A stretch of DNA of 64,000 bases, taken from a virus. Where the stretch lies: IMG/VR virus record IMGVR_UViG_3300037468_000493, positions 1 through 64,000 of that record, one strand, 5' to 3'. Below are positions 2,987 to 64,000 of this stretch, piece after piece. The notes beneath the pieces are model-generated. The model searched no databases. It had not been told where the DNA came from and saw nothing but the letters and a program-made list of their open reading frames with translations. The position numbers and the translations under genes are program-made. Within the stretch, counting starts at the first letter, position 1. The number at the start of each line of letters is the position of its first letter.

Positions 2987-3034
2987 CTACCCCCCACACA
3001 CAGCGCCTTGCCCGGTTCGCTACCGGGCCTAACC

Positions 3035-3313
3035 ATGCCTACCCCATCCCGCAATGTGCTTAGCTTATCGCTGAGCACAGAAGATCAAACCTTGCTGGTT
3101 GATGTCCTGGCCGAGGCTGGGTTCAGCAAGCCCACCCAGTTTTTGAGGAGTGTCGCCCGTCGCCAGATTGCGATCGGCCCTCCCAATAATGCAGGGTTGC
3201 AGCGGCAGATTAGCGCCCTGGCTGAGCAAGTTGAGATGCAGTCCAACGCCATCGATGAGCTACGCTGCCATGCTGCAGGGCAACCCCCGCGATCGCCCAC
3301 GGATCTACCATGA
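3035..3313 (+). CDS. Ribbon-helix-helix-like regulator with coiled coil, coupled to csf1
   Basis: VLSLSLSTEDQTLL...AGFSKPTQFLRSVARR; ATGA overlap with csf1; likely start ATG 3035. Confidence 0.55.
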   Translation: MPTPSRNVLSLSLSTEDQTLLVDVLAEAGFSKPTQFLRSVARRQIAIGPPNNAGLQRQISALAEQVEMQSNAIDELRCHAAGQPPRSPTDLP

Positions 3314-3975
3314 ACACACCTCAATTATTGTACGCATCTCCCCCCGCTGAAGGTGCGGCGGACGGCCATTGCTCAGTCTGTGGATGGCATGGGCCGACCT
3401 ATGCCAAGGCTCAGGTATTTAGCAAAAGTACCGGGGCCGTGTCGGTGCTGGCGACGGTGCCAACTGATCGCATCTGCGTCCATTGCGCTGCACTGTGGGG
3501 AGAACCTAAAGTTTTTGCCCGTGCAGTACTGGCCACACCGGAAGCAGTACTGTTCCCGACTATCGCCCCCGACCCAGCAGGGCAACGGCCCACCTGGGGG
3601 CAAGCGCTAGCCGCCCTAGACCCTACACGGCCTCGGGTGTGCATCCTCACCACTGACCCCAAAAAACGGGTATGGCCCTTTGCTCAGGTAAGCCAGGGCG
3701 ATCGACTCAGCATGTACGTCCACGACCCTAGCCGGGGCATCTCAGGCAATCGCGTAGTGAGCCTGTCGCTATTGCTGACTACGATCGCTGGTATTGAAGC
3801 CATCTACAATCTAGGTTTTAGCAAAACCGCCATTGAGCGGGGGTTGCTGGATGATTTAAAGCGCGCCAAAGCACTAGGCATCCCCGACACCGTTGCCCAT
3901 GAAAGATACTTGCAAAGTGTCCGTATACTCCCTGAATTTTTGACTTCCCTAATAGTCGCTCAAAAGGATCCCTAG
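3310..3975 (+). CDS. csf1: Type IV CRISPR-associated Csf1 (Cas8-like large subunit)
   Basis: CSVCG and CVHC zinc pairs, KKRVW motif, GFSKTAIERG motif; position in operon. Confidence 0.85.
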   Translation: MNTPQLLYASPPAEGAADGHCSVCGWHGPTYAKAQVFSKSTGAVSVLATVPTDRICVHCAALWGEPKVFARAVLATPEAVLFPTIAPDPAGQRPTWGQALAALDPTRPRVCILTTDPKKRVWPFAQVSQGDRLSMYVHDPSRGISGNRVVSLSLLLTTIAGIEAIYNLGFSKTAIERGLLDDLKRAKALGIPDTVAHERYLQSVRILPEFLTSLIVAQKDP

Positions 3976-3977
3976 TT

Positions 3978-5396
3978 ATGCCTGATCGCATTTTGCTCAA
4001 GCTCACTGCCCTAACCCCTGTAGCCCATGGTGAGGCCGGGGCCAACAGTACGGGGCCGAATAACACGACCCTCTTTAATCGCCAACTCCAGCGGCTCACT
4101 AAAGAAACAGTGGGGGTGGACGTGGAGGTCGCCAGAGACGCCATTGCAAACCTACTGACGGCCATGCCTATCGGTGCCGATACCTTTCCCCTGCTGGAGT
4201 CGCTGAAAGGATCTGAATTGGTGGCAGCTCTATTTGTGGCCCAGGTGCCAATCATGTTCCCCGGAGACGGTGAGGGGCTATTTACTGGAATGGAGCGCTA
4301 CCGAATGTTAAGCACCCGTTTAGCCGATGGGGCCAAGTGCTGCGCCACGTTGCCTGAGTTGTGGAGCTACCTTAGCCGGAAGCTAATGCTCCCCATGTTT
4401 CCCTCTTACGGGTTTGAGGTAATGCGGGCGTTTTTCGTCCTCCCCAAGGCCATTCAGGGGCAATCAATTCAGGCCATTAGCAAAGCCCTGGAACTTACGG
4501 TAATGGCCGCTCGGATGCTGGCAGAGAGCATCAAGGCCGAGCGCAAAAGTGCTAAAGACAATAATCCCAGCCTGTTTGCCGCGCAGGTCTACCAGGCCAG
4601 CCCTGAACAGTTAGCCGACCTCACCCGACCCAAGGCTGAGGCGATCGTAATGCCCGTCCCGAGTATTAGTGGTAACGCCCTGAGACACTGCCTAATCCGT
4701 GAACCCGGCGCAAATCGGCTGATTCAATCCCTAGGACTGGAACCCTACACCGACCGCGATGGGGATCACCTGGGCTTAGGCATCACTCGATTTTTGTACG
4801 GCGGTGGGCAGCTTGCCGCTAAAGCCAAAGCACCCAGCGCCAGTGACATTTACGAAGCCGAGGTTCGCAGCCGTTACCCCATTGTTGATGCCGTGGGTGG
4901 TAGCACTGATTCCTGGTTGATGGCCGAAAGCGCCTGCAAGGTCGCCGGATGGGTAGTCTGCGCAGAAAACAATGTGGCTACCCAATCGATCGCCGGGGTT
5001 GAGTCGAAGGTGAGCATTTTCGATTACCTCAGTGAAGAAACCAAGACCAGAACCGGCATTGGTGGCAAGGACAAAGAATCAGGGCAAATGATTTTCTCTT
5101 ACGAAACCCTAGCCGCTGGGCTACCCCTGATTGTTGAGGTATTGTTCAATCCCTTCACCCAACCCCTGACCATTGGCGCTGTGTGGCAAGCGGTGCATGA
5201 CTGGGCCAATGAAGGAGGCATCGTTGGGGGCCGTTCCCAGATTGGCCATAGCCGATTTGCGTTGGAGGTATTGCAAGGTGCATACGGGCTGGAAGGCAAA
5301 GCCTACCTTGATTACCTAGAGACAGAGCGTGATAATCTACGCCCTGGCTTACTCGATGCCACGATGGGGACTGGGGCAGTGCTATGTGCGGCTTGA
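3978..5396 (+). CDS. csf2: Type IV CRISPR-associated Csf2 (Cas7) with a large helical Cas11-like insertion
   Basis: N-terminal LTALTPVAHG...TLFNRQ; VPSISGNALRH; LYGGG; QMIFSYETLAAG; Gly-rich VGGRSQIGHS loop. At 472 aa it is longer than a typical Csf2. Confidence 0.85.
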   Translation: MPDRILLKLTALTPVAHGEAGANSTGPNNTTLFNRQLQRLTKETVGVDVEVARDAIANLLTAMPIGADTFPLLESLKGSELVAALFVAQVPIMFPGDGEGLFTGMERYRMLSTRLADGAKCCATLPELWSYLSRKLMLPMFPSYGFEVMRAFFVLPKAIQGQSIQAISKALELTVMAARMLAESIKAERKSAKDNNPSLFAAQVYQASPEQLADLTRPKAEAIVMPVPSISGNALRHCLIREPGANRLIQSLGLEPYTDRDGDHLGLGITRFLYGGGQLAAKAKAPSASDIYEAEVRSRYPIVDAVGGSTDSWLMAESACKVAGWVVCAENNVATQSIAGVESKVSIFDYLSEETKTRTGIGGKDKESGQMIFSYETLAAGLPLIVEVLFNPFTQPLTIGAVWQAVHDWANEGGIVGGRSQIGHSRFALEVLQGAYGLEGKAYLDYLETERDNLRPGLLDATMGTGAVLCAA

Positions 5397-6079
5397 TTCA
5401 TAGCCCACGGTTTCGGACTGGTGACCTTGAAGCATGGCGGCGGTTGGAATTAGCAGACCGCCTCTATGCCCAGCGATACCGGGCCAAACTACAGCGCATG
5501 GCCGATGAAGCACAGGCAACCATCGCTGCATTCCTAGAGGATGGCCCCGCCTATTGTTCGGTAAGTTGGGGCAAGGATTCTGTAGTGGTGGCTGACCTTT
5601 GCCGGGGGATGGATTTGCCCATGGGCTACATCAGGATTACGCCCTTCAACAATCCCGACTGTGATTTAGTGCGAGATGCCTTTGCCCCTGAGCACTACCA
5701 CGAGGCGATCGTAGTGCGGCCCGATGATGAAGAATGCTCTCACAGTAGCGGCGTTTTTGATGAAGGCGGGAAACTGCTAGAGGCTGAGTTCGACACCGAT
5801 CGCAGAATCACCGGAATCAGAAAAGATGAATCGCAGTCTAGGCGACTCAGGGGCAGTGCCAACACTAAGCGCAGTTGCGTCCCCATTGCCAAGTGGAGCA
5901 CTCAGGATGTTTTTGCCTATCTTGCACTTCACAATCTGCCCATCCATCCTGCCTACGCAATGAGCAACGGGGGGCAATTCCATCGCAATAATCTACGGGT
6001 TGCGTCAATCGGTGGGGTTCGTGGAACCCAATTTAATCGCCGCGAATGGGAAAACCTTTACTACCCAGAAATCCTATGA
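5384..6079 (+). CDS. cysH: CysH/PAPS-reductase-family protein of type IV-B systems
   Basis: PP-loop SVSWGKDS, GIRKDESQSRR, PIAKWSTQDVFAYL...LPIHPAY. Confidence 0.88.
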   Translation: MCGLIHSPRFRTGDLEAWRRLELADRLYAQRYRAKLQRMADEAQATIAAFLEDGPAYCSVSWGKDSVVVADLCRGMDLPMGYIRITPFNNPDCDLVRDAFAPEHYHEAIVVRPDDEECSHSSGVFDEGGKLLEAEFDTDRRITGIRKDESQSRRLRGSANTKRSCVPIAKWSTQDVFAYLALHNLPIHPAYAMSNGGQFHRNNLRVASIGGVRGTQFNRREWENLYYPEIL

Positions 6080-6771
6080 AAATCATCCACATCCCCGAAC
6101 TAGACGCTATGGGCACTCGCTTTGCATCCCTACCCATGGCCCCATTTTGCCTTACCCTACGCACCCTAAAGCCAGTAGCGGGCAACGACGCTTTGCACCT
6201 AGACGGTCTACTAGCTAAAGCGGTGGTGATTGAGGCCATGCGAGGCAAACCACTGGCCCCGACCGAGGATGCCTATTACATGCCCTTGCCATTGGGGCTA
6301 GAGCGGTTGCACCTGGGCTTACCCGTTTGGCAGTGCAATGATTTTGCCGCCGTTGACGCTGCCGTAGGCCATACCCATTATCACCAGCGCAGCGACTCCA
6401 ACCCTTACGACCCAGCCGCAACCGTAGCCACATTACCCCAGAAGAAACGCCGTAGAATGCCACCCACGACCGAAGGGCAATACATGAGCTACCGTGTCCC
6501 CTTGCAGTACACCGAGGCCGATTGCTGGCAATGCGAAGCCGTGGGCAATGCCGATGAGGTGCTGCGGCTGCTGAATGAGTACATCTCTTCTGTAGGCAAG
6601 AAAGGTAGCCATGGATGGGGGCGTGTATTGTCGTGGGCGGTTGAATCAATCAATCAATTTGAACTTTCGCGCCCAGTCCCCACTGCTGATACCTCACGGC
6701 CCTTCAATGCTCAGATCATGGGGTGGACGCCGCCCTATTGGCATCGCGGTCTATGGCGACTTTGCGGCTAG
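6076..6771 (+). CDS. csf3: Type IV CRISPR-associated Csf3 (Cas5)
   Basis: LHLDGLLA, PLPL, GQYMSYRVP, VGKKGSHGWGRV Gly-rich loop, RPVP, PPYW; ATGA overlap with the cysH stop. Confidence 0.85.
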   Translation: MKIIHIPELDAMGTRFASLPMAPFCLTLRTLKPVAGNDALHLDGLLAKAVVIEAMRGKPLAPTEDAYYMPLPLGLERLHLGLPVWQCNDFAAVDAAVGHTHYHQRSDSNPYDPAATVATLPQKKRRRMPPTTEGQYMSYRVPLQYTEADCWQCEAVGNADEVLRLLNEYISSVGKKGSHGWGRVLSWAVESINQFELSRPVPTADTSRPFNAQIMGWTPPYWHRGLWRLCG

Positions 6772-6834
6772 CCCACGGATCGCCCCTAGCCCTGCCCTAG
6801 TTGACTTACTTGTGGCTAAATGCAATATTCAATT

Positions 6835-6953
6835 TAGGCAGAGCCTCTGAGGTTCCCGTAGGGAGCCGACACTTCTACTTTGCAGGGTTCCCCTAGCCCC
6901 ACCCCAACAGAAAGCCCCTGATCCAGCGATGGATCAGGGGCTTTCTGTTGGGG
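6835..6953 (+). ncRNA. Candidate small structured RNA downstream of csf3
   Basis: Putative promoter TTGACT(6801)...CAATATT(6823-6829); hairpins AGGCagaGCCT and GGTTCCCgtaGGGAGCC; ends in a 24-bp stem. Confidence 0.4.
6902..6953. terminator. Perfect 24-bp inverted repeat (bidirectional terminator)
   Basis: CCCCAACAGAAAGCCCCTGATCCA-gcga-TGGATCAGGGGCTTTCTGTTGGGG. Confidence 0.75.
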
Positions 6954-7038: not shown

Positions 7039-7614
7039 TTAGTCGGCCTTGAGGATATCAAGTTCCCTGTTCTCTCGCAACCTTGCGCAGTTATATCGAA
7101 ACCTGGCGACATCTTGCTCAGACCAAAGATCGTCCTCAAGCGCTACAGCCATATCCTCGTCGCCGTCGCAAATTTCCATCAGTTCTCCAAAGTCAAGCCG
7201 GATAGTTTCTTCTGTGGACATTGAGGCAAAGTCCGGGAATCCGACAAAAGTTTTTTCTGGATTTAGTCTTGGGTCTTTGTGCCTCGGGATTTGACGGCCA
7301 CGGGAGTAAATCGGGGCGTTGTTCAATGGTGGGCTGTAAAGCGCTATCAGCTCAGACTCTAATCGCTTCAGATCTACCCAAGGCTCAGTGACCAGGTAGG
7401 CCAATTGGATGCCGCCAATGCCAGAAAGGTCACTCCTTCTATGGTGACCGTTCCATCTACGACGAAGGCTTGTACTGGTTATCCCAATATAAAGAACCTG
7501 CCCCCGAAACATGGCGAAGTAAACCCCGGGAGTTTCGGGCAACTGCCCTCGTCGTTCTATTGGGACGGATGGGAGCAAGCTAGGCTCAATCGTCGCTGCC
7601 GTCATCTGGCTCAT
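7039..7614 (-). CDS. GIY-YIG nuclease domain protein
   Basis: PGVYFAM...VLYIGIT..LRRRW..H...LESELIALYSPPLN. Confidence 0.85.
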   Translation of the reverse strand: MSQMTAATIEPSLLPSVPIERRGQLPETPGVYFAMFRGQVLYIGITSTSLRRRWNGHHRRSDLSGIGGIQLAYLVTEPWVDLKRLESELIALYSPPLNNAPIYSRGRQIPRHKDPRLNPEKTFVGFPDFASMSTEETIRLDFGELMEICDGDEDMAVALEDDLWSEQDVARFRYNCARLRENRELDILKAD

Positions 7615-7864
7615 AGTTGTTCTTCTCCAGTGCCTTGCGCTTCCATTCCTCAACCGTCACGCCCTGGCCTTCGGCTAACTCAGCAGCCATCTGATCTATC
7701 TGCTCAGCATTGGCTTCTACCCTGGCCTGCACCACGTTCTGCCACATTCCGGCAATCGTCTGGCCTTTGGCCTCAGCCCACCAAATAAACCGCTTCATGT
7801 GCCACGCAGGCAGCCGTACAGAGTATCGCTTCATGTTTCGCCGGGGTGACATCGCTAATCTCAT
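7586..7864 (-). CDS. Putative ribbon-helix-helix regulator divergent from the ATPase module
   Basis: KRYSVRLPAWHMKRFIWWAEAKGQTIAGM pattern. Confidence 0.5.
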   Translation of the reverse strand: MRLAMSPRRNMKRYSVRLPAWHMKRFIWWAEAKGQTIAGMWQNVVQARVEANAEQIDQMAAELAEGQGVTVEEWKRKALEKNNYEPDDGSDD

Positions 7865-12595: not shown

Positions 12596-13276
12596 TCACG
12601 GCCCAACCGTGACAGCCTTGACGAACACCCCGTCAACCATCGCCCCATTACGGCCCTCAATCTTTGCCAGGGCCAGGGCCAAGCACTCTGGGCCTGATAG
12701 TTCCAGTAAGATCCGCGCCTCGTCCTCGACGCACCGAGCAACTGTCCCGATTTCAGCAAAGAGTGATGTATTTGCTATGTTTAGCGATGCCGCGTAGTCA
12801 AAGCTGGTTTTCAGGCCAAGCGCCCAATCACCGACAAATTGCCAAGTGGAGAGTCGATGATTGGGCGCTTTTTGTCGGCATGAATCCAAGGTTACCCCGT
12901 GCATCGCCGCCAGGATAGTCAGCGTTACCAACACATCACCAAACTCTAGGGCAATGCGATCAAGGCGACGATCCAGTACGCCCTCGCCCTCAACAATCAG
13001 CCCCAATGGAAACAACTGCAAGCGCATGGCCTTAGACTTAGCCAATTTCCGCCGCTCTAATTCGGCCTCCCCAATCTCTTCCATGATCTTCTGGTACTGG
13101 CCCTGGGTAGTGCCCAGCAGGGGGCGGCCAGCAGGGGATATGATCCGGCGATGGGTGGCCCATGCCCTGATCTTGGGCTCTAGGGTGGCATAGGTGGGGA
13201 GGGTGCTGGATAAAGGCATGGGGCTACCGTGAGTTATGGGGGTTATTTTAGCTTGGGTCATTGTCGCCATCCTCAT
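12596..13276 (-). CDS. MazG-like nucleotide pyrophosphohydrolase
   Basis: WATHRRII...QKIMEEIGE...EFGDVLVTL...CLALALAKIEGRNGAMVDGVFVK. Confidence 0.75.
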   Translation of the reverse strand: MRMATMTQAKITPITHGSPMPLSSTLPTYATLEPKIRAWATHRRIISPAGRPLLGTTQGQYQKIMEEIGEAELERRKLAKSKAMRLQLFPLGLIVEGEGVLDRRLDRIALEFGDVLVTLTILAAMHGVTLDSCRQKAPNHRLSTWQFVGDWALGLKTSFDYAASLNIANTSLFAEIGTVARCVEDEARILLELSGPECLALALAKIEGRNGAMVDGVFVKAVTVGP

Positions 13277-16733: not shown

Positions 16734-17014
16734 ACGCAGCTCCCAGAATCTACGCCAATTGTAGCCGCCAACTCTTGTACCGATACCCCAGCAACTAGGG
16801 CCACGACAGCAATCGCTGCCCCCAGGTCCTCCACCCTGATCGCCGCTGCCAATGCTGCTGACGATAGCGAGGGGGCCAGTGATGCCGCCGCGATAGTTGC
16901 ACCCAGTGCCGCGATGGTGACGCAGGGCAAGAACCGGAGGATAAAGAATACTGCCCGAGGGTTAAGCCCGAGGGGGTAGAGGTTGTTTTGCAACCCTAGG
17001 GGGTAAAGACTCAT
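16730..17014 (-). CDS. Hypothetical Ala-rich protein
   Basis: Coupled on both sides. Confidence 0.45.
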   Translation of the reverse strand: MSLYPLGLQNNLYPLGLNPRAVFFILRFLPCVTIAALGATIAAASLAPSLSSAALAAAIRVEDLGAAIAVVALVAGVSVQELAATIGVDSGSCV

Positions 17015-20000
17015 CGCGGCACCCTTTCTACTGCGGTTGCCCCAGTCGTTGCAGGATCGCCGTCGGCATCTACCAGATCAAATACCGTCCTCACGCTACC
17101 GTCAGCATTGTATTGGGTGGCGGTGCTGGCTGCGTAGTTGATTTTGTGGCGGCCAGAGGCTACTGCCCTAGCGGCTGCCTCTGCGGCGATTAGCGCATTG
17201 TGGCGATCGGTCGTGAAGCCCGCCGCCTGCACCTGGGCCAGGGTCGCCGCCGAGGTAATGGCCGTGGCCTGTGCTCCGCTGAGAGTGCGATCGCCTCCCG
17301 AGTACACCCAGACCTGAGCCGCTGTCAATGTGCTTAGCCCACTGGTTGCGGCTGTAATTGCCGCTTCCACAGCGCTTTGATCGGCTGGATCGCTGGGTAG
17401 GGTGTCCGTCTTGGCCTTGATCAATGCAATGTCGCCATTCGCCGGGGCTGTGTAACCTGCGGTGGCTAACCTGCTGCTGATGGCGGCATCAATCCGCCCG
17501 GTGACCGTTGGGGTCAAGCCTACGTCAGCCAGGGCCGTATCAACTTCGGCGTTGACCTGGGCCGTGCTGAGGTTATTGAGCCCTGCGATCGCCGTTGTGA
17601 CCGTCCCAACATCGCTGGTTAGCTCTGCCCGTGTCGGAGGGTCGTAGGCCGTCAGGGCCGCTGCTGCCGCCGCCTGGGTAGCTGTAGAGTCGAGGGGCGG
17701 TGTGGTGAGGCTATAGCCGGTTTTGTCGTTATTCGTGCCCACTGTCACGGCTCCGCTCGTGATGGTCAAGGCTGAGCCGATCCGAGACAGTAGGGTGGTC
17801 ACTCCGCTGGAGTCTGCGATCGCTGTCAATGTGCGAGTAGCCGCAGTCCACACAGCGTCGAATGCCCCCGCCGCAAACTTAGCGCTGGTGAATGCTCCAT
17901 CCTGAATCTTGGCAGGGGTGATCGCCCCGTCTGAAAGGCTATAGCCAGTTTTGTTGGTGACGGTGCCTACGGTTGTCACGTTGGCTACTGTGTCGGTAGC
18001 CGGGTCAAAGTAATCGGCAGCGGCCAGTGTTCGTGCTGTAATTTGAGCCGGGATTGTGGCGTCGGTATCTACCAGGATGGCATCAACTACGGTGTCGATC
18101 GCCCCTAGTTGAGTATCCAGATTGGCGCTGCCCAGACCCACTGCCGACCGTGTCCCCGCTGCGTCAAGGGGATTGTTTCGGGCCACTAGGGTGTCGAGGT
18201 CTGCATCCACACTGCCCGCAGAGGGTGAGCCTGCCGTTGGGGCCAGCTTGAGCGCATCGCGTACCTGTTGAGCCGTTAGCCCACCGCCCGAGGGTGCATT
18301 GACGAGGGCCGCTGTGCTAAATACTCCAGCCGTTTGCAATGTCGCAGCTAGATCAGCTAGGTCTTCAGCCTCGCCCGCCGTCAATCCACTGGTGCCTGAT
18401 TCAAATGTCAGTAGAGTGCCTAAGCTGAGCGCATTTGGGTTAATGCCACCGGTGCCGGGTTCGCCGGGGGCTACCAGGCTGCTCCCATCAGCGCTGGTGG
18501 CATTGCCCCCTACAATATTCAGCCGGGTTGAGCTAGTGTTGTCAATCTCAAAATTGGCAAACACAAAGTTATTTGCGGTAATAGCGACTGATGTATCGGC
18601 ATTAATTAGTCGAATCCCTGGGGCCGTTGAGGATACCCACACGCCCCAAATATAAATATCCTGCCATAGGCTTAGGCCGTCGGCATCAGAGGCGTTCACC
18701 TGAACTCTACCGCCGCCACCCTCTAGACCAAAACTGTAGGGGCCACTATTAGACGCATCAAGGGTACTGCCATCGTTAGCAGCAGTTAGCTCCGTGACCA
18801 CCGTACCGCTAGCGTTTTTGATCCGCCCCCCGATTTGCACGGAAGTTGAAGCAACAATATCTTCATGCACCTCATTTAATTCAATGGCCGGATTTACCAC
18901 CACAGGATCATTAATCCCTGCCGTTGTGCTCCACAAAAATTCTTGGATATATAGCGGGGTAGCTGTGGCAACCCCAGCACTACTAGCCCAGTAAATCGCC
19001 TTGCGAACAACCCTGTCTCCATTGGCCAGAGTTAAGGCAACACTGGCCCCGCTACCGCCACTAATCGTTGTATTAGTTAGTTGAGTTTCAGCGATCAATG
19101 TAAATATTGAGCCGCTGGCGTTTGTGCCTGCTGTGGATATTGTGATAGGTGTTCCAGCAATATCCGATTCCTTCACAAACAGCGTGATAGCCCCACTAGA
19201 AATGGTGGCATAGTAGCGCCCACCATCGACTATCTGCGGGCTAGTCGTGGGCAAAGTTGCCCCTGCTGTAGCTTGGATTTTGGCGTTTGTATAGGGGCTA
19301 CCCGTAGCAAATGCTGGGGGCTGGCTGTTGCTGTCGTTGCCTAGGGTAATAGTGTCTGGGCCAGTGTTGATGGCGCTGCTAGCGACCAGAAAAGATTGCT
19401 GGTGGGCTAGATATAGGCGAGTGCCATTGACTAGGCTGGCGGCGGTGTAGGCAACAACTGGCTCCTGAATCGTCACGCCCGCCCCTGCCGTGATGTTTGC
19501 CGCAGAACCGAGCGGAACTAACACGGTTGCCGTCCCACTTGTCACGTTGATCGTAGTTGTTGCCGCAAAGGTGCAATTTCTTAAATCTAAATTGGCCCCA
19601 CTGCGATCTGCATTAGGGAATACTTCTAAAGTTGAGCCATTCTGGAAAAAGAAATCTATTGTATAGGTCGCCTTTTTGCCTAGGCGAACGGTGGCCCCAG
19701 AGGCCACGGTAATGCCACTTGAGTTGGTGATATCTGCCGTGGCGGTCGTCAACCGTAGAGCTGATCCACTGCCAATAGTGCCCGAGTCGTCAAAGTCAAA
19801 TGTGTAGTTGAAAGCTAAAGTGAATGCAACCGGAGATACGCCCGCAGAGAAGTTGAAGTAATCCAGCGACGAGGTTAATTCCGCTAGGTTTGCAGCGGTG
19901 ATTAGCCTAATTGAAAGTGATACGGCTACGTTATTTAGATTATTGGGCAATAGCTGAGCCCCGGCAACATCAGTAATCTGAAAGAGGCTAACTCTAGCTG

Positions 20001-21165
20001 AGCTAACATCTGCCGTTGCAATCCACAGTATCCCATCTGTCGCTTGGAACTGAAATATTGACTGAGGGCCATTCCCAACGTTTTTTGTTATTAGCGTATT
20101 CGCTGTAATTGTGGCTTGGGACTGGACAATTCCGTCAGTCCCCGCAATTTGAAATAGACTGACTCTATTTGAACCATTATCGGCTGTCGCAATCCACCGG
20201 GTTCCATCTGTACCTTGAAGCTGAACGACTGAATAAGGGTTAGTCCCAACGGGTTTGGTTATTAAAGTATTCGCTGTAATTGTGGCTTGGGACTGGACAA
20301 TTCCGTCAGTCCCCGCAATCTGGAATAAACTGACTCTACTTGAAGTAAAATCGGCTGTTGCAATCCACCGGGTTCCATTTGTCGCTTGGAACTGAACGAC
20401 TGAAAAAGGGTTAGTCCCAACGGTTTTTGTTATTAAAGTATTAGACGTAATTGTGGCTTGGGACTGGACAATGCCATCAACGCCCGCAATTTGAAATAGA
20501 CTGACTCTATTTGAACTAAAATCGGCTGTTGCAATCCACCGGGTTCCATTTGTCGCTTGGAACTGAACGACTGAAAAAGGCGTAGCCCCGACGGTTTTTG
20601 TTATTAGCGTATTCGCTGTAATTGTGGCTTGGTCATCAACAATGCCATCAACGCCCGCAATCTGAAAGAGGCTAACTCTAGCTGAACTACTATCTGCTGT
20701 TGCAATCCACCGGGTTCCATCTGTACCTTGGAACTGAAATACTGAACGAGGCGAATTCCCAACGGTTTTGGTTATTAAAGTATTAGACGTAATTGTGGCT
20801 TGGTCATCAACAATGCCATCAACGCCCGCAATCTGGAATAAACTGACTCTACTTGAACTACTATCTGCCGTTGCAATCCACCGGGTTCCATCTGTCGCTT
20901 GGAACTGAAATACTGAGTAAGGGTTAGTCCCGACGGTTTTGGTTATCCGCGTATTAGACGTAATTGTTGCTTGGTCATCAACAATGCCATCAACGCCCGC
21001 AATCTGGAATAAACTAACTTGATTTGAAAAAAAATCGGCTGTTGCAATCCACAGGGCTCCATCAGTCGTTTGGAACTGAACGACTGACTGAGGGTTAGTC
21101 CCAACGGTCTTAATCCTCATGGGACGCAGATCCAGATCCAGCGCAAAGCGATAGTTAACCGCCAT
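17011..21165 (-). CDS. Large tail fibre/adhesin with N-terminal seven-repeat beta-propeller
   Basis: 1384 aa; 7 x 57-aa repeats (VGTNP.SV...WIATAD..S.RVSLFQI); C-terminal Ala/Thr-rich fibre repeats (DKTGYSL, VWTAATRTLT). Confidence 0.7.
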   Translation of the reverse strand: MAVNYRFALDLDLRPMRIKTVGTNPQSVVQFQTTDGALWIATADFFSNQVSLFQIAGVDGIVDDQATITSNTRITKTVGTNPYSVFQFQATDGTRWIATADSSSSRVSLFQIAGVDGIVDDQATITSNTLITKTVGNSPRSVFQFQGTDGTRWIATADSSSARVSLFQIAGVDGIVDDQATITANTLITKTVGATPFSVVQFQATNGTRWIATADFSSNRVSLFQIAGVDGIVQSQATITSNTLITKTVGTNPFSVVQFQATNGTRWIATADFTSSRVSLFQIAGTDGIVQSQATITANTLITKPVGTNPYSVVQLQGTDGTRWIATADNGSNRVSLFQIAGTDGIVQSQATITANTLITKNVGNGPQSIFQFQATDGILWIATADVSSARVSLFQITDVAGAQLLPNNLNNVAVSLSIRLITAANLAELTSSLDYFNFSAGVSPVAFTLAFNYTFDFDDSGTIGSGSALRLTTATADITNSSGITVASGATVRLGKKATYTIDFFFQNGSTLEVFPNADRSGANLDLRNCTFAATTTINVTSGTATVLVPLGSAANITAGAGVTIQEPVVAYTAASLVNGTRLYLAHQQSFLVASSAINTGPDTITLGNDSNSQPPAFATGSPYTNAKIQATAGATLPTTSPQIVDGGRYYATISSGAITLFVKESDIAGTPITISTAGTNASGSIFTLIAETQLTNTTISGGSGASVALTLANGDRVVRKAIYWASSAGVATATPLYIQEFLWSTTAGINDPVVVNPAIELNEVHEDIVASTSVQIGGRIKNASGTVVTELTAANDGSTLDASNSGPYSFGLEGGGGRVQVNASDADGLSLWQDIYIWGVWVSSTAPGIRLINADTSVAITANNFVFANFEIDNTSSTRLNIVGGNATSADGSSLVAPGEPGTGGINPNALSLGTLLTFESGTSGLTAGEAEDLADLAATLQTAGVFSTAALVNAPSGGGLTAQQVRDALKLAPTAGSPSAGSVDADLDTLVARNNPLDAAGTRSAVGLGSANLDTQLGAIDTVVDAILVDTDATIPAQITARTLAAADYFDPATDTVANVTTVGTVTNKTGYSLSDGAITPAKIQDGAFTSAKFAAGAFDAVWTAATRTLTAIADSSGVTTLLSRIGSALTITSGAVTVGTNNDKTGYSLTTPPLDSTATQAAAAAALTAYDPPTRAELTSDVGTVTTAIAGLNNLSTAQVNAEVDTALADVGLTPTVTGRIDAAISSRLATAGYTAPANGDIALIKAKTDTLPSDPADQSAVEAAITAATSGLSTLTAAQVWVYSGGDRTLSGAQATAITSAATLAQVQAAGFTTDRHNALIAAEAAARAVASGRHKINYAASTATQYNADGSVRTVFDLVDADGDPATTGATAVERVPR
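19975..21115 (-). repeat. 171-bp tandem coding repeats (7 units)
   Basis: GCAATCCACCGGGTTCC recurs at a 171-bp period (e.g. 20531, 20702, 20873). Confidence 0.9.
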
Positions 21166-29693: not shown

Positions 29694-29826
29694 CCTGTAC
29701 AGGGTGTGCAGGCCATGCAGGCTCTCGTTGAAATTATTTGGGTGTGTGTGCGGCGAAATTTTTTCGGAAACACACATCACTTTCACGCTAGGAAACAGGG
29801 GTGTTTGCCCTGCACGGCCTGCACAG
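29694..29826. repeat. 133-bp element, copy 1 (terminal 15-bp inverted repeats)
   Basis: Near-identical to 43184-43316 and 43349-43481. Confidence 0.9.
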
Positions 29827-29831
29827 TGCTA

Positions 29832-29954
29832 ATAAGTTAGCGCCCCTGGCAGACTCGCCATCTACCAGGGGCGCTAACTTATCGCGGTAATCCCCGGCCT
29901 AACCGCCGGGGCAGCTGTCAAGGATTCCTTGACAGCTGCCCCAGCGGTTAGGCC
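29832..29954. repeat. Two long adjacent palindromes
   Basis: 18-bp stem at 29832-29882; 59-bp near-perfect palindrome at 29896-29954, centred at 29925. Confidence 0.85.
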
Positions 29955-42626: not shown

Positions 42627-42711
42627 GTCGCAACCGTGAGATTACCACGATTCTACCATAACGGCCACACGGCCCCCCCCACCCCCCCCGGCCTGCCACC
42701 ACTCGACGCAA

Positions 42712-42745
42712 CAAACCCCCGCCATTGCTGACGGGGGTTTTGTTT
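42712..42745. terminator. Intrinsic terminator
   Basis: CAAACCCCCGCC...GACGGGGGTTTTG. Confidence 0.6.
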
Positions 42746-43183
42746 GGGTGAGCCAACTTGCCAAACTCAACCCATGAGCTTCTCGAACTCTCTCCATAAT
42801 ACCAAAACAAAACCCCTTCGCTAGGCCAGGGGTTTCTCATCGGGGCAAGCATACCTCTCGAGGGTGAAACCCTTGATTTACTTGGGGCTGGGGGTAATCA
42901 GCAAGCATCACCCCTCGTCCATCCACAGCAGCCCTATCCACGGGGTATTCACCTCAGCCTCGCGCCGTACCCAGTCCAGGGCCACCCCAGGCCGCGCATC
43001 CTCGCTCCACCACTGACACACCGGGCGGAACGTGATCGACACCTCGCCCAACTGCCAGCAGTCTGCCACCTTCACCCCGCAAGTGTAGTAGCGGAGCCAG
43101 GGGTAAAAGGTTCGCAGTAGGGGCGGCATGGCGGGGGGACTTGTGGGGCTACCGTGATTCTACCGCAGGTCACCCTCACCCTA

Positions 43184-43481
43184 CCTGTACAGGGTGTGCA
43201 GGCCATGCAGGCTCTCGTTCAAATTATTTGGCTGTGTGTGCGGCGGAATTTTTTAGGAAACACACACAGCTTCTGCGCTAAGAAACGGGGGTGTTTGGGG
43301 TGCACGGCCTGCACAGCCCTAGCGCGATTGCTCAAAACCCTTCTGTACCCTGTACAGGGTGTGCAGGCCATGCAGGCTCTCGTTCAAATTATTTGGCTGT
43401 GTGTGCGGCGAAATTTTTTCGGAAACACACATCACTTTCACGCTAAGAAACGGGGGTGTTTGGGGTGCATGGCCTGTACAG
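43184..43481. repeat. 133-bp element, copies 2 and 3 (165-bp period)
   Basis: 43184-43316 and 43349-43481, same orientation as 29694-29826. Confidence 0.9.
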
Positions 43482-43731
43482 CCTTAGCGCGATCGCCTAA
43501 AACCCCTGTTCTCTCGTTGCGGCCATCATTGCCTGGCTCATTACTACAGGAGGCACAGGGCACTATTACCTAATCTTTTCTTATATACTTTTACTGTGTA
43601 TAGACAGCACAAAACAGACCACGTTGCCGGGGTCTTTTCAAAATTGTAGCACCTTGCACAGCCCTGAACGATGCCGCCAACCCCGACCCGGCGCGGCCTA
43701 GGGTGGTGCACTACACAGTAGAGAGAGCACC

Positions 43732-43917
43732 ATGACCCTAGACCCTGGCGATCGCTGCTACTACCGCACTGCCAATTCCCTGTACCCTGCCGTCGTCGTG
43801 GGGTGCCCCATGGACGTGCTGGTGCTCCGGGTAGACTGGGGCGATCGCTGCACTGACCTGGGCCTAGAGTGGGCACCGGGTAGCGAGGAGTGGGGCAGGA
43901 TTGCGCCACCGTTCTGA
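43732..43917 (+). CDS. Small SH3/Tudor-like hypothetical protein
   Basis: LDPGDRCYY...YPAVVV; followed by a terminator. Confidence 0.4.
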   Translation: MTLDPGDRCYYRTANSLYPAVVVGCPMDVLVLRVDWGDRCTDLGLEWAPGSEEWGRIAPPF

Positions 43918-43935
43918 GCCCTGGGGACAGGCACT

Positions 43936-43967
43936 AAAAAACCCCCCGGCGCTGGCCGGGGGGTTTG
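43936..43967. terminator. Bidirectional terminator
   Basis: AAAAACCCCCCGG...CCGGGGGGTTT. Confidence 0.7.
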
Positions 43968-43982
43968 CTTTGGCCTCGTGGC

Positions 43983-44183
43983 CTAGCGCTTGAGCGCTGT
44001 AGCTGCAATCTGTAGCGCGGCGGCTACGCTTGCGTCGAAGTCCATCTCGCGTAGCCTAGCCTCGTTGTGCCGTTCCTTGATGGCGGCCATCCGTGAGCGG
44101 TGGGCTCTCAGCGCCCCCTGTAGTTGCCCTTGGATGTATTGGGCGTCGGTGGCGATTGCGTCGATCATTGTTTGGTTTTCCAT
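43983..44183 (-). CDS. Small helical hypothetical protein
   Basis: Leader GCAAGGCACCACCATG resembles the cassette leaders. Confidence 0.55.
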   Translation of the reverse strand: MENQTMIDAIATDAQYIQGQLQGALRAHRSRMAAIKERHNEARLREMDFDASVAAALQIAATALKR

Positions 44184-44743
44184 GGTGGTGCCTTGCGTAC
44201 TACTCCTCAACTATAGCCGCGCAATAGCCCACAGCCAAAACCCTTGCACCTAGGGCGTTTCAGACCCCAGCACCGGCAAAACTCTCAGAAAATACCCCTA
44301 AATCTGGCCCTGGGATCGCTGTTTTTGAGGCTACCTAGTACAAACGGTCATAAAGGTTTTGCAAAGCAAATGGCGTATCTTTATAAAGCCAAGTTAAAGC
44401 ACCCTGACAAATGTACTACCCTTACCAGAACCCTTGCGGGGTGGGGCTTTGGGGCGTCAACAGGCTTTACGCAGTCTTTATATAAAGGTTGAGGATTGGG
44501 CTCAAACCCTTGCGGGGCGTGGCTTTGAAAACTTCACAGTAGGGCAGGCTTCACGGTGGGTTTGTGTGGCTGGGAGAAGGCGCGACCTGGGCCATAGCCA
44601 TTCGCCATAGGTCTTCCCGTCCACGCCAACTGTACCGGGGTTCTGATTGACAAGGCCATAGTTGGCAGCCCTACCCTGCGGTGTTGCAAAGGCTATGGCA
44701 CAGATCGCCCTACCATTCTACCAAGCGACCCCCAGCAGTTAGG

Positions 44744-45079
44744 CTAGAGAAGTGGGCCAGGCTGGAGCGCATAGCGGGGCAGGGAGGAGTATTGAACAAA
44801 AAAAGGCACCCCTGCCAATAGGTCTACGCCATCAAAAACATCAGAGGCTAGCCCCTCCGGCTTTACCAATGCCCATCCCTCGATACACTCAATTGGTTCG
44901 CACCAGGTAGTAGTACGAGGGGCGCTCGGATCTAGTTCACCTGTGGCGGCATTTCGCCCAATCAGCCCAGCCTCATCAATTGCTGCTGGATTGTAGTCCG
45001 TGATTGCAGCACGAATATTGCCATCAATGACGGATTGGGCGGATTGGGCGTCTTCAAGAGTTTGAAACAATAAGTACAT
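44744..45079 (-). CDS. Hypothetical virion-associated protein
   Basis: Follows the SGNH gene. Confidence 0.5.
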   Translation of the reverse strand: MYLLFQTLEDAQSAQSVIDGNIRAAITDYNPAAIDEAGLIGRNAATGELDPSAPRTTTWCEPIECIEGWALVKPEGLASDVFDGVDLLAGVPFFVQYSSLPRYALQPGPLL

Positions 45080-45096
45080 AATTCACCTAGCGTGAT

Positions 45097-62963: not shown

Positions 62964-63884
62964 TTGAACTACCGCGCCCCGGCTGCTACAACAGCGTGGG
63001 GCATTACCATTTTACCTTACAAATCTCACAGTAGAATCATAGGAGCATCTACGCCCTACCCTTGCCCTGCCCTGAGATGCCCTGTGAGTCAGCCTACCCC
63101 CTTATCTTTGGTCTTCGGCCCTGACTTTGGGGTTTCACATCGCCATCCTGATGGAGAAGTACGGTATTGGCGCGATCGGCTCGCAGGCCACATCCGAGTA
63201 TTTAAACCGGTAGTCGGCGGGGTTGAGCGCAATATGTTTGAGCTGGGCCGTCACCCTAGCTGCTGGCTGCGGATTGGCTGGGAATCTGTCTCCGGCCATG
63301 AGCGGCAACGCACCAATGAGGCTGGTTACCCACTATTTGGGGCTATCAGCCGGGTGATGGTCACCATTGCCTGGGCCAGTGAAACAGACTACCCCTGGAT
63401 CAGCCATAGCAAATGGCTGGTGATGCCTGGGGGCGTGTACGTGGGCAAAGATGGCCACCGCGAATCTAGCACTGCCCGCAATGGCGTTTACCTCAATGGC
63501 CACAGGCTCAGCGATGGCGACAACCCCGAGTCCCTATTTGAGCCAGGGCAACACGAGGCTTATTTGTCCCTGGGCAAAACCGGGCGAATCATTATCGTCG
63601 ACGGCTCCCTGGATGAACACAGCACCGGCTGGCCCACTCAGGTCTGGACTGGGGCCAATTGGCCTGATGGTGAGGCTGACGAACCTAGCACCGACCTATC
63701 CCCGCAACGACTCCAAGTAGAGGGCCAGGTGGCAGCGGCAAAGACCGGCGCTGATGTAACCGGGCGAACCATGGCAGACCTGGCCGCGATTGTGCTGTAC
63801 GGCCCGGAGGGCGTGGATGCTCGCCTCTGGTGGGCATTCTGCGGCCTCCTTGGGGCTGTAGTGTTGTGGATTTTGGAACGATAA
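62964..63884 (+). CDS. Putative FHA-domain membrane protein (start uncertain)
   Basis: STARNGVYLNGHRL FHA-like motif; C-terminal TM. Confidence 0.45.
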   Translation: MNYRAPAATTAWGITILPYKSHSRIIGASTPYPCPALRCPVSQPTPLSLVFGPDFGVSHRHPDGEVRYWRDRLAGHIRVFKPVVGGVERNMFELGRHPSCWLRIGWESVSGHERQRTNEAGYPLFGAISRVMVTIAWASETDYPWISHSKWLVMPGGVYVGKDGHRESSTARNGVYLNGHRLSDGDNPESLFEPGQHEAYLSLGKTGRIIIVDGSLDEHSTGWPTQVWTGANWPDGEADEPSTDLSPQRLQVEGQVAAAKTGADVTGRTMADLAAIVLYGPEGVDARLWWAFCGLLGAVVLWILER

Positions 63885-64000
63885 TGTCTCACTCGTACCC
63901 TTCCGTAAAAACGGCGATCCTCACCGGGGCGATCGGGCTGCATTATCAGCCAATCCACAACTTGAGCGATAGACGGCTGCTAGGCTATGAAGCGCTGGCC

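Follow-up and report, generated by a model that had tools for sequence, protein, structure and literature searches.

The virus record IMGVR_UViG_3300037468_000493 of IMG/VR carries a set of genes for a type IV-B CRISPR-Cas effector complex, read as a single tightly coupled operon. We analysed the first 64 kb of this 79,753-bp record (the 64,000-nucleotide stretch called the window hereafter), in which the operon spans positions 3035-6771 of the plus strand and comprises five open reading frames (ORFs): a small upstream ORF, csf1, csf2, a cysH-like gene and csf3 (Table 1). The small subunit Cas11 has no gene of its own here: it is encoded as a domain within a loop of Csf2, the Cas7-type backbone protein. 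We consider it quite probable that the locus is a functional type IV-B effector module without an array, and that its architecture has not been described before.

Table 1. Features of the type IV-B operon and its downstream boundary (window coordinates)
Feature	Positions	Strand	Remarks
Small upstream ORF	3035-3313	+	92 aa from ATG at 3035; ATGA overlap with csf1
csf1, candidate type IV large subunit	3310-3975	+	221 aa; N-terminal CxxC...CxxC zinc finger
csf2, type IV Cas7 backbone subunit	3978-5396	+	472 aa; internal Cas11 domain
Cas11 (type IV-B small-subunit) domain	4104-4631	+	Csf2 residues 43-218
CysH-like (CasCysH-type) protein, putative PP-loop ATP alpha-hydrolase	5384-6079	+	231 aa; PP-loop SWGKDS, residues 61-66
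csf3, type IV Cas5	6076-6771	+	231 aa
Perfect 24-bp hairpin	6902-6953	.	between convergent csf3 and minus-strand ORF 7039-7653

Read directly along the operon, the first and fourth junctions between the five ORFs are ATGA overlaps, the second is a gap of 2 nt and the third an overlap of 13 nt, so that cysH starts inside the 3' end of csf2 and its stop overlaps the start of csf3. The csf3 start was placed at the ATG at 6076, and not at the upstream ATG at 6046, since homology to the phage contig L003 resumes exactly at 6076. An initial annotation made from the DNA sequence had described four coupled genes; the identities that it gave them (Csf1, Csf2, CysH and Csf3) and the position of cysH inside the operon, between csf2 and csf3, were borne out by our searches and by the ORF coordinates, and the number of coupled ORFs is corrected to five. 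The hairpin downstream of csf3 is also present in L003, where a G>C change is compensated by a C>G change; it probably serves as a bidirectional terminator at the end of the operon. At the other end, a GC hairpin (GCCCGG-TTCGCTA-CCGGGC, 3010-3028) lacking a T-run stands directly 5' of the ATG at 3035, the preceding ORF stopping at 2986. A comparison of the operon DNA with GenBank phages returned no direct nucleotide match.

Csf2 had no match in Pfam, and the PADLOC profile typeIV_Cas7 matched it (E 2.6e-24) over residues 222-455 only. An AlphaFold model of the full-length protein (predicted local distance difference test, pLDDT, 80; predicted template-modelling score, pTM, 0.62) placed type IV-A and IV-B Csf2 structures at the top of a Foldseek search (7xg1_F, E 5.8e-8), and a VIA-wide comparison retrieved the IV-A1 Csf2 8rc3_A (Z 18.1) and the IV-B Csf2 7jhy_e (Z 16.0). 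The operon has no separate cas11 gene, and its csf2 is about 180 residues longer than expected from classical loci. The N-terminus of Csf2 is the Cas7 beta1-hairpin (LLKLTALTPVAHGE...NNTTLFNRQ) and the core resumes at VPSISGNALRH, with an insert, residues 43-218, between the hairpin and the SGNALRH segment. The insertion site was located by comparing the N-terminus of a split Csf2 (VVLEAVEPVAHGD...NVRLFMRSAILYNGQGVRVPDLSENALR) with that of the window protein. Because this site lies within a loop, after the second strand and before the SxNALR segment, we are dealing with a domain insertion rather than with a read-through fusion of neighbouring genes.

Both structure and sequence identify this insert. 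Folded alone, residues 43-218 gave a model (pLDDT 85.5, pTM 0.85), which, compared with 48,161 PDB representatives by VIA-wide, had 7jhy_h as its best match (Z 9.5, root-mean-square deviation 3.5, 123 of 143 residues) with the runner-up at Z 4.9; Foldseek also put 7jhy_h on top. The sequence profile of the insert matched the same chain, which is named 'Csf4 (Cas11)', with E 5.9e-6. The profile was moreover aligned by hhalign with a family of 18 free-standing proteins of about 140 aa (probability 99.8%, E 1.7e-27), and the alignment of these small proteins, searched against the PDB, matched the Cas11 of 7JHY only (E 2.5e-5). In canonical type IV-B loci cas11 is a separate gene (PMC7038947, PMC7937560), and the literature that we searched held no description of a Cas11 domain inside a type IV Csf2; the arrangement is therefore a new architecture within the known subtype IV-B.

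The fused form is not confined to this phage. When the insert profile was searched against 1.84 billion representative proteins, 189 matches were obtained, and among the best 150 of them 96 were proteins of at least 400 aa matched at about residues 45-220, and 43 were proteins of 120-200 aa, in most of which the match extends almost from end to end. About 55 clusters, and in addition the IMG/VR contigs L003-L012, contain homologues of the long Csf2 (28-95% identical to it); such homologues also occur on contigs of metagenome-assembled genomes labelled Pseudomonadota, Chloroflexota and Microbacterium. In a tree of the Csf2 core, insert-bearing and short forms are separated at 100/100, the insert of one member (L034), which is cut at the contig end, being assumed. 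The fused Csf2-Cas11 proteins thus form a sizeable clade that had gone unrecognised. Gene order varies within it: cysH lies between csf2 and csf3 in the window, in L003, in the Chloroflexota and Microbacterium contigs and in L040, and one sub-clade has the order csf1-csf2-csf3-cysH.

Split relatives of the fused protein were found in three metagenome loci (L037-L039), which have a free-standing cas11 and the order csf1-cas11-csf2-csf3-cysH (L037 starts at cas11); their Cas11 (140 aa) and Csf2 (282 aa) each share about 32% identity with the part of the window Csf2 to which they correspond. Classical phage loci are built likewise, with a csf1 product of about 250-270 aa, a Cas11 of about 145-190 aa and a Csf2 of about 280-340 aa, followed by csf3 and cysH. 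A search among short proteins for close split forms of the window Csf2 yielded fragments of fused genes only, one of them spanning beta1 and the start of the insert.

Csf3 is readily recognised: the PADLOC profile Csf3_0_IV matched it with E 4.2e-28 over profile positions 3-214 of 222, and TIGR03116 with E 2.3e-10, under the curated NCBI cut-off. For Csf1 the matches are weaker, namely PADLOC Csf1_0_IV with E 2e-7 over residues 16-178 and TIGR03114 with E 0.018. Ten of 19 homologues match the latter family (best E 1.1e-4), as do all 12 first-gene proteins of classical loci tried, and the Csf1 family aligns collinearly with those first-gene proteins (hhalign E 1.4e-4, probability 52%). We assign this protein to the type IV large subunits with moderate confidence, on sequence comparison. 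All three Csf proteins thus come out as type IV components in profile and structure searches, and the CysH-like protein as a member of PF01507, as the initial annotation had expected. Single-protein phmmer searches against PDB sequences gave insignificant matches only, to the Cas7c and Cas5c chains of 11fs (E 1.1 and 0.088). A complex prediction for Csf3 with the CysH-like protein scored 0.00, which counts neither way. The small upstream ORF is 87% identical in L003 and matched no Pfam, PHROG, PADLOC or Atlas family; its sequence pattern might be that of a ribbon-helix-helix protein.

Nothing CRISPR-like came out of repeat and tandem-repeat scans, which covered the window and the other 15.7 kb of the record. 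A six-frame search of all 79,753 bp, in which cas2 was not searched by name, found no Cas6, Csy4, Cas6e, Cas1 or Csf4/DinG. The claim that the system lacks an array consequently holds beyond the window, the rest of the record containing neither an array nor a cas6 gene. Of the three subtypes compared, IV-A is disfavoured by the lack of an array and of any match to TIGR03117, PF01881, PF09618 or PF08798, and IV-C by a large subunit that is a 221-aa Csf1 with insignificant similarity to Cas10 (E 1.5). What the locus does contain, csf1, csf2, csf3, cas11 (as a domain) and a CysH-like gene with no array, cas6, cas1 or dinG, is the content of type IV-B. A RecD-like helicase (AAA_30, UvrD_C_2) is encoded at genome positions 70054-71931 (L002 10054-11931), beside a D5_N primase. 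Type IV-D systems use a RecD helicase; the one found here sits in the replication module, about 11 kb away from the csf genes when counted across the genome end, does not belong to the locus and is probably replicative.

The search for RNA elements bears on a reading in which the complex would load host crRNAs (CRISPR RNAs) or a small RNA of the phage in order to find host or competitor targets, which the CysH-like protein would then modify or silence. The Cascade-like parts are all intact and subject to selection, type IV-A offers a precedent for target silencing without a nuclease (PMC12669027), and a promoter-like site with hairpins directly follows csf3. That stretch (about 6788-6901), considered as a mini-array or small-RNA gene, contains an 11-nt imperfect pair only and is wholly absent from L003. 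Our own scan for 22-mers recurring at 42-81 nt gave just two pairs, one of them inside a gene; the other, at 44430 and 44506, was rejected as an array since in the sister phage G001 its repeats are less conserved than the intervening 'spacer', the opposite of what an array shows. With no array, mini-array or Cas6 in the genome and no Rfam family in the window, borrowed guides seem to us distinctly unlikely. A transfer RNA scan was also negative. The 44430/44506 pair belongs to a duplicated unit of about 76 nt whose interior is better conserved than its ends in the sister phage, and which lies in a tract of about 2.4 kb without a long ORF (42627-45096). The same tract holds a 165-nt tandem pair (43184-43505), of which a third copy, 81% identical, is found at 29694-29850. 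These elements are possibly regulatory or non-coding RNA.

The fourth gene encodes a CysH-like protein that matches PF01507 (E 2e-10) and conserves the PP-loop SWGKDS and an R..ES..R motif. It scores far below the curated cut-offs for true CysH, the reductase of 3'-phosphoadenosine 5'-phosphosulphate (PAPS), with 30.2 against 154 bits for NF002537 and 21 against 165 for TIGR00434, and has no cysteine in its last 45 residues, the region of the catalytic one. It is accordingly not a bona fide PAPS reductase; a PP-loop without the catalytic cysteine is how the 'CasCysH' associated with IV-B has been described (PMC8175902). A CysH-like gene is present in every locus with enough sequence and adjoins csf3 in nearly all of them; in L018 and L020 it lies a few kilobases downstream of csf3. 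A second, larger PAPS-reductase-like protein (377-425 aa, with a canonical SGGKDS) stands beside CasCysH in L018 (8773-9906), L020 (8376-9653) and L004 (8908-10164) and forms a separate clade in the CysH tree (100/100).

The comparison with L003, a 78-kb phage with terminal repeats whose Csf2 is 94% identical to that of the window, reveals how this gene has moved. Nucleotide identity between the two phages, about 87%, ends at the csf2 stop codon and restarts at the csf3 start. Within that slot the window has its 231-aa CysH and L003 a 233-aa CysH that is 31% identical to it, plus a cupin gene (L003 7407-8470: cysH, then a 121-aa Cupin_2 protein, E 1.8e-11, both coupled into the operon); the cupin is a possible partner of CysH in L003. 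In the CysH tree the window protein sits apart from the CysH of its own Csf2 clade and groups with those of the classical short-Csf2 loci L013-L028 (89/93, the branch not being starred). From this foreign tree position, the swap with L003 and the constant retention of the gene, we infer that cysH is exchanged as a cassette and never lost. Like-for-like exchange between near-identical phages argues that the enzyme is both indispensable and modular.

Comparison with L003 also allowed selection to be estimated: dN/dS (the ratio of non-synonymous to synonymous substitution rates) was 0.19 for the small ORF, 0.10 for csf1, 0.05 for csf2 (0.054 for the insert) and 0.12 for csf3. Values of 0.05-0.19 mean that the genes are under constraint, and by this sequence-based measure purifying selection acts on the operon. 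Together with the nature of the CysH-like protein, they make it very improbable that the locus is a decaying remnant, in which inactive csf leftovers would stand by chance next to a PAPS reductase of phage sulphur metabolism. In favour of that reading, PAPS reductase homologues are common auxiliary genes of phages (phrog_2302, phrog_424), and all scores against NCBIfam profiles lie under the curated cut-offs. Decay is nevertheless hard to reconcile with reading frames that stay intact in dozens of homologues (28-95% identical) and with overlapping start and stop codons, and a metabolic origin of the enzyme with its grouping among CysH proteins of other IV-B loci, its missing cysteine and its 30 bits against a CysH cut-off of 154.

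The carrier is an approximately 80-kb siphovirus-like phage with terminal repeats, and the operon lies at its left end among small plus-strand ORFs. The record has a 127-bp exact terminal repeat and genes for a tape measure protein, a major head protein (sharing 45% identity with its counterpart in Vibrio siphophages of the SSP002 group), a portal and a large terminase, which, with the csf profile and fold matches, upholds the view that the type IV-B operon is phage-encoded. Replication genes (RecD-like helicase, D5_N primase and SNF2 helicase) and methylases are found in the rest of the genome. DNA of the phage was detected in 11 sequencing-run datasets from sediment, aquatic and marine metagenomes, and no RNA dataset was listed among them. 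The octamer GCGATCGC, which we take to be the cyanobacterial palindrome HIP1, occurs 35 times in the window against 0.88 expected (for instance at 3289, 9932 and 17287) and 39 times in the whole genome. This excess, the sole host clue found, makes a cyanobacterial host plausible; the term 'cyanophage' used in the initial annotation stands in that sense, and not as a direct identification of the host.

Such a host has a bearing on another explanation, that the Csf complex is, as the initial annotation had suggested, a crRNA sponge, an anti-CRISPR that would bind host crRNAs or other guides and so disarm type I or type III systems, with CysH in an accessory or regulatory part. Type I-D and type III systems are common in Cyanobacteria, the likely host phylum by the HIP1 signal. 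A phage-borne system without array and Cas6, located at the left genome end, where small plus-strand ORFs form a block, would suit the role, and the idea was raised in studies reporting that IV-B is negatively correlated with other CRISPR systems (PMC7038947, PMC8175902). The authors of PMC7038947 nonetheless judged a sponge unlikely for its complexity, and the solved IV-B complex bound heterogeneous RNA, not co-expressed crRNAs (PMC7937560). Moreover, a sponge needs no enzyme, yet a CysH with intact PP-loop is always retained, and even replaced like for like. We regard this explanation, too, as unlikely.

Some results weigh against the reading of the locus as a functional type IV-B module with an inserted Cas11. 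The hhalign probability that links its Csf1 family to the first-gene proteins of classical loci is only 52%. In the full-length model, with its pTM of 0.62, it is uncertain how the Cas11 domain is oriented against the Cas7 core. The insert shows no significant relationship to the Cas11 proteins of the phage IV-B loci L013-L028 (hhalign 0.6%); a profile of those proteins in turn found no match in the PDB. Finally, CheckV estimated the completeness of the record at 69%, despite its terminal repeat.

For the module as we read it, the following scheme may be proposed. By analogy with the structure 7JHY, which contains Csf2, Cas11 and RNA only (PMC7937560), Csf2 would polymerise along an RNA of about 55-60 nt, each protomer supplying its tethered Cas11 domain so that a minor filament forms at a fixed 1:1 ratio, and Csf3 and Csf1 would cap the filament ends. 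Since there is neither an array nor a Cas6, the RNA would be a non-CRISPR transcript of host or phage, or else a borrowed crRNA. Catalysis would be the task of the CysH-like enzyme, acting by adenylation or another modification on a nucleic acid or small molecule that the complex presents; as it retains the ATP-binding PP-loop and the R..ES..R motif and lacks the sulphonucleotide-reducing cysteine, its most likely activity is that of an ATP alpha-hydrolase or adenylyl-transferase (PMC8175902). The role of the whole module in the phage would most likely lie in conflict, that is, in counter-defence or in competition with other mobile elements, which is a guess. The more specific proposal that the Csf filament is an RNA-templated or RNA-guided platform, which would offer a specific nucleic acid of host or phage to the PP-loop enzyme for adenylation or chemical modification, we put forward tentatively and with low confidence.

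Several other genes of the phage deserve mention. An EAL-domain protein (PF00563, E 7e-28), likely a phosphodiesterase of cyclic di-GMP, is encoded at 63830-64000 and on to genome position 64609 (L002 3830-4609). The minus-strand ORF 17011-21165, of 1384 aa, contains 6.6 tandem copies of a 171-nt coding repeat (19975-21108) and is probably a fibre or tail protein. ORF 7039-7653, also on the minus strand and converging on csf3, matches GIY-YIG weakly (E 8e-4) and possibly encodes a homing-type nuclease. A MazG-like pyrophosphatase lies at 12596-13276 (-).

Type IV-B systems of prophages and lytic phages have been published before (PMC7038947, PMC10848311), and the locus can be set beside several known relatives. 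It resembles the IV-B system on a megaplasmid of Mycobacterium sp. JS623 (7JHY, PMC7937560) in having Csf1, Csf2, Csf3 and the same unusual Cas11 fold, and in lacking an array, Cas6, adaptation genes and a helicase. The JS623 system, however, has a separate cas11 and six Csf2 to five Cas11 subunits, whereas Cas11 inside Csf2 forces a 1:1 ratio; its carrier is a plasmid and not a phage, and the window differs further in its cysH between csf2 and csf3 and its shorter Csf1 (221 aa). The split loci L037-L039 and L013-L028 provide the same five functions with separate cas11 and csf2 genes, in the order csf1-cas11-csf2-csf3-cysH. An atypical IV-B system of Fuxivirus, a virus of Bathyarchaeia (PMC10848311), is likewise virus-encoded with CysH adjoining Csf3, but the virus is archaeal, Cas11 is separate and a mini-array is present, in contrast to the array-less phage described here. 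Outside type IV, types III-E and III-I have fusions of Cas7 with Cas11 (PMC12669027). These share with our protein the covalent joining of Cas11 to Cas7 in a class 1 effector, but each of them is one giant protein that comprises three or four Cas7 domains, and they use crRNA arrays, whereas the window Csf2 has one Cas7 with one loop-inserted Cas11 and must still polymerise. The insertion of Cas11 into Cas7 in type IV is an independent parallel to the Cas7-11 of types III-E and III-I.

Type IV-B is the one widespread CRISPR-Cas subtype that is without a known function, and in the literature that we searched it still counted as unexplained in 2025 (PMC12669027). The locus analysed here offers a minimal, self-contained IV-B system for experiments, with four effector genes in 3.5 kb of an array-less phage genome, cysH being translationally locked between csf2 and csf3. 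Tethering Cas11 to Csf2 fixes the stoichiometry and spares one subunit. If the proposal of an RNA-templated or RNA-guided platform is true, the module would represent an RNA-directed system of nucleic-acid modification serving host takeover or counter-defence, and the fixed 1:1 union of Cas7 and Cas11 would be an adaptation that lets the complex assemble fast and stoichiometrically in early infection.

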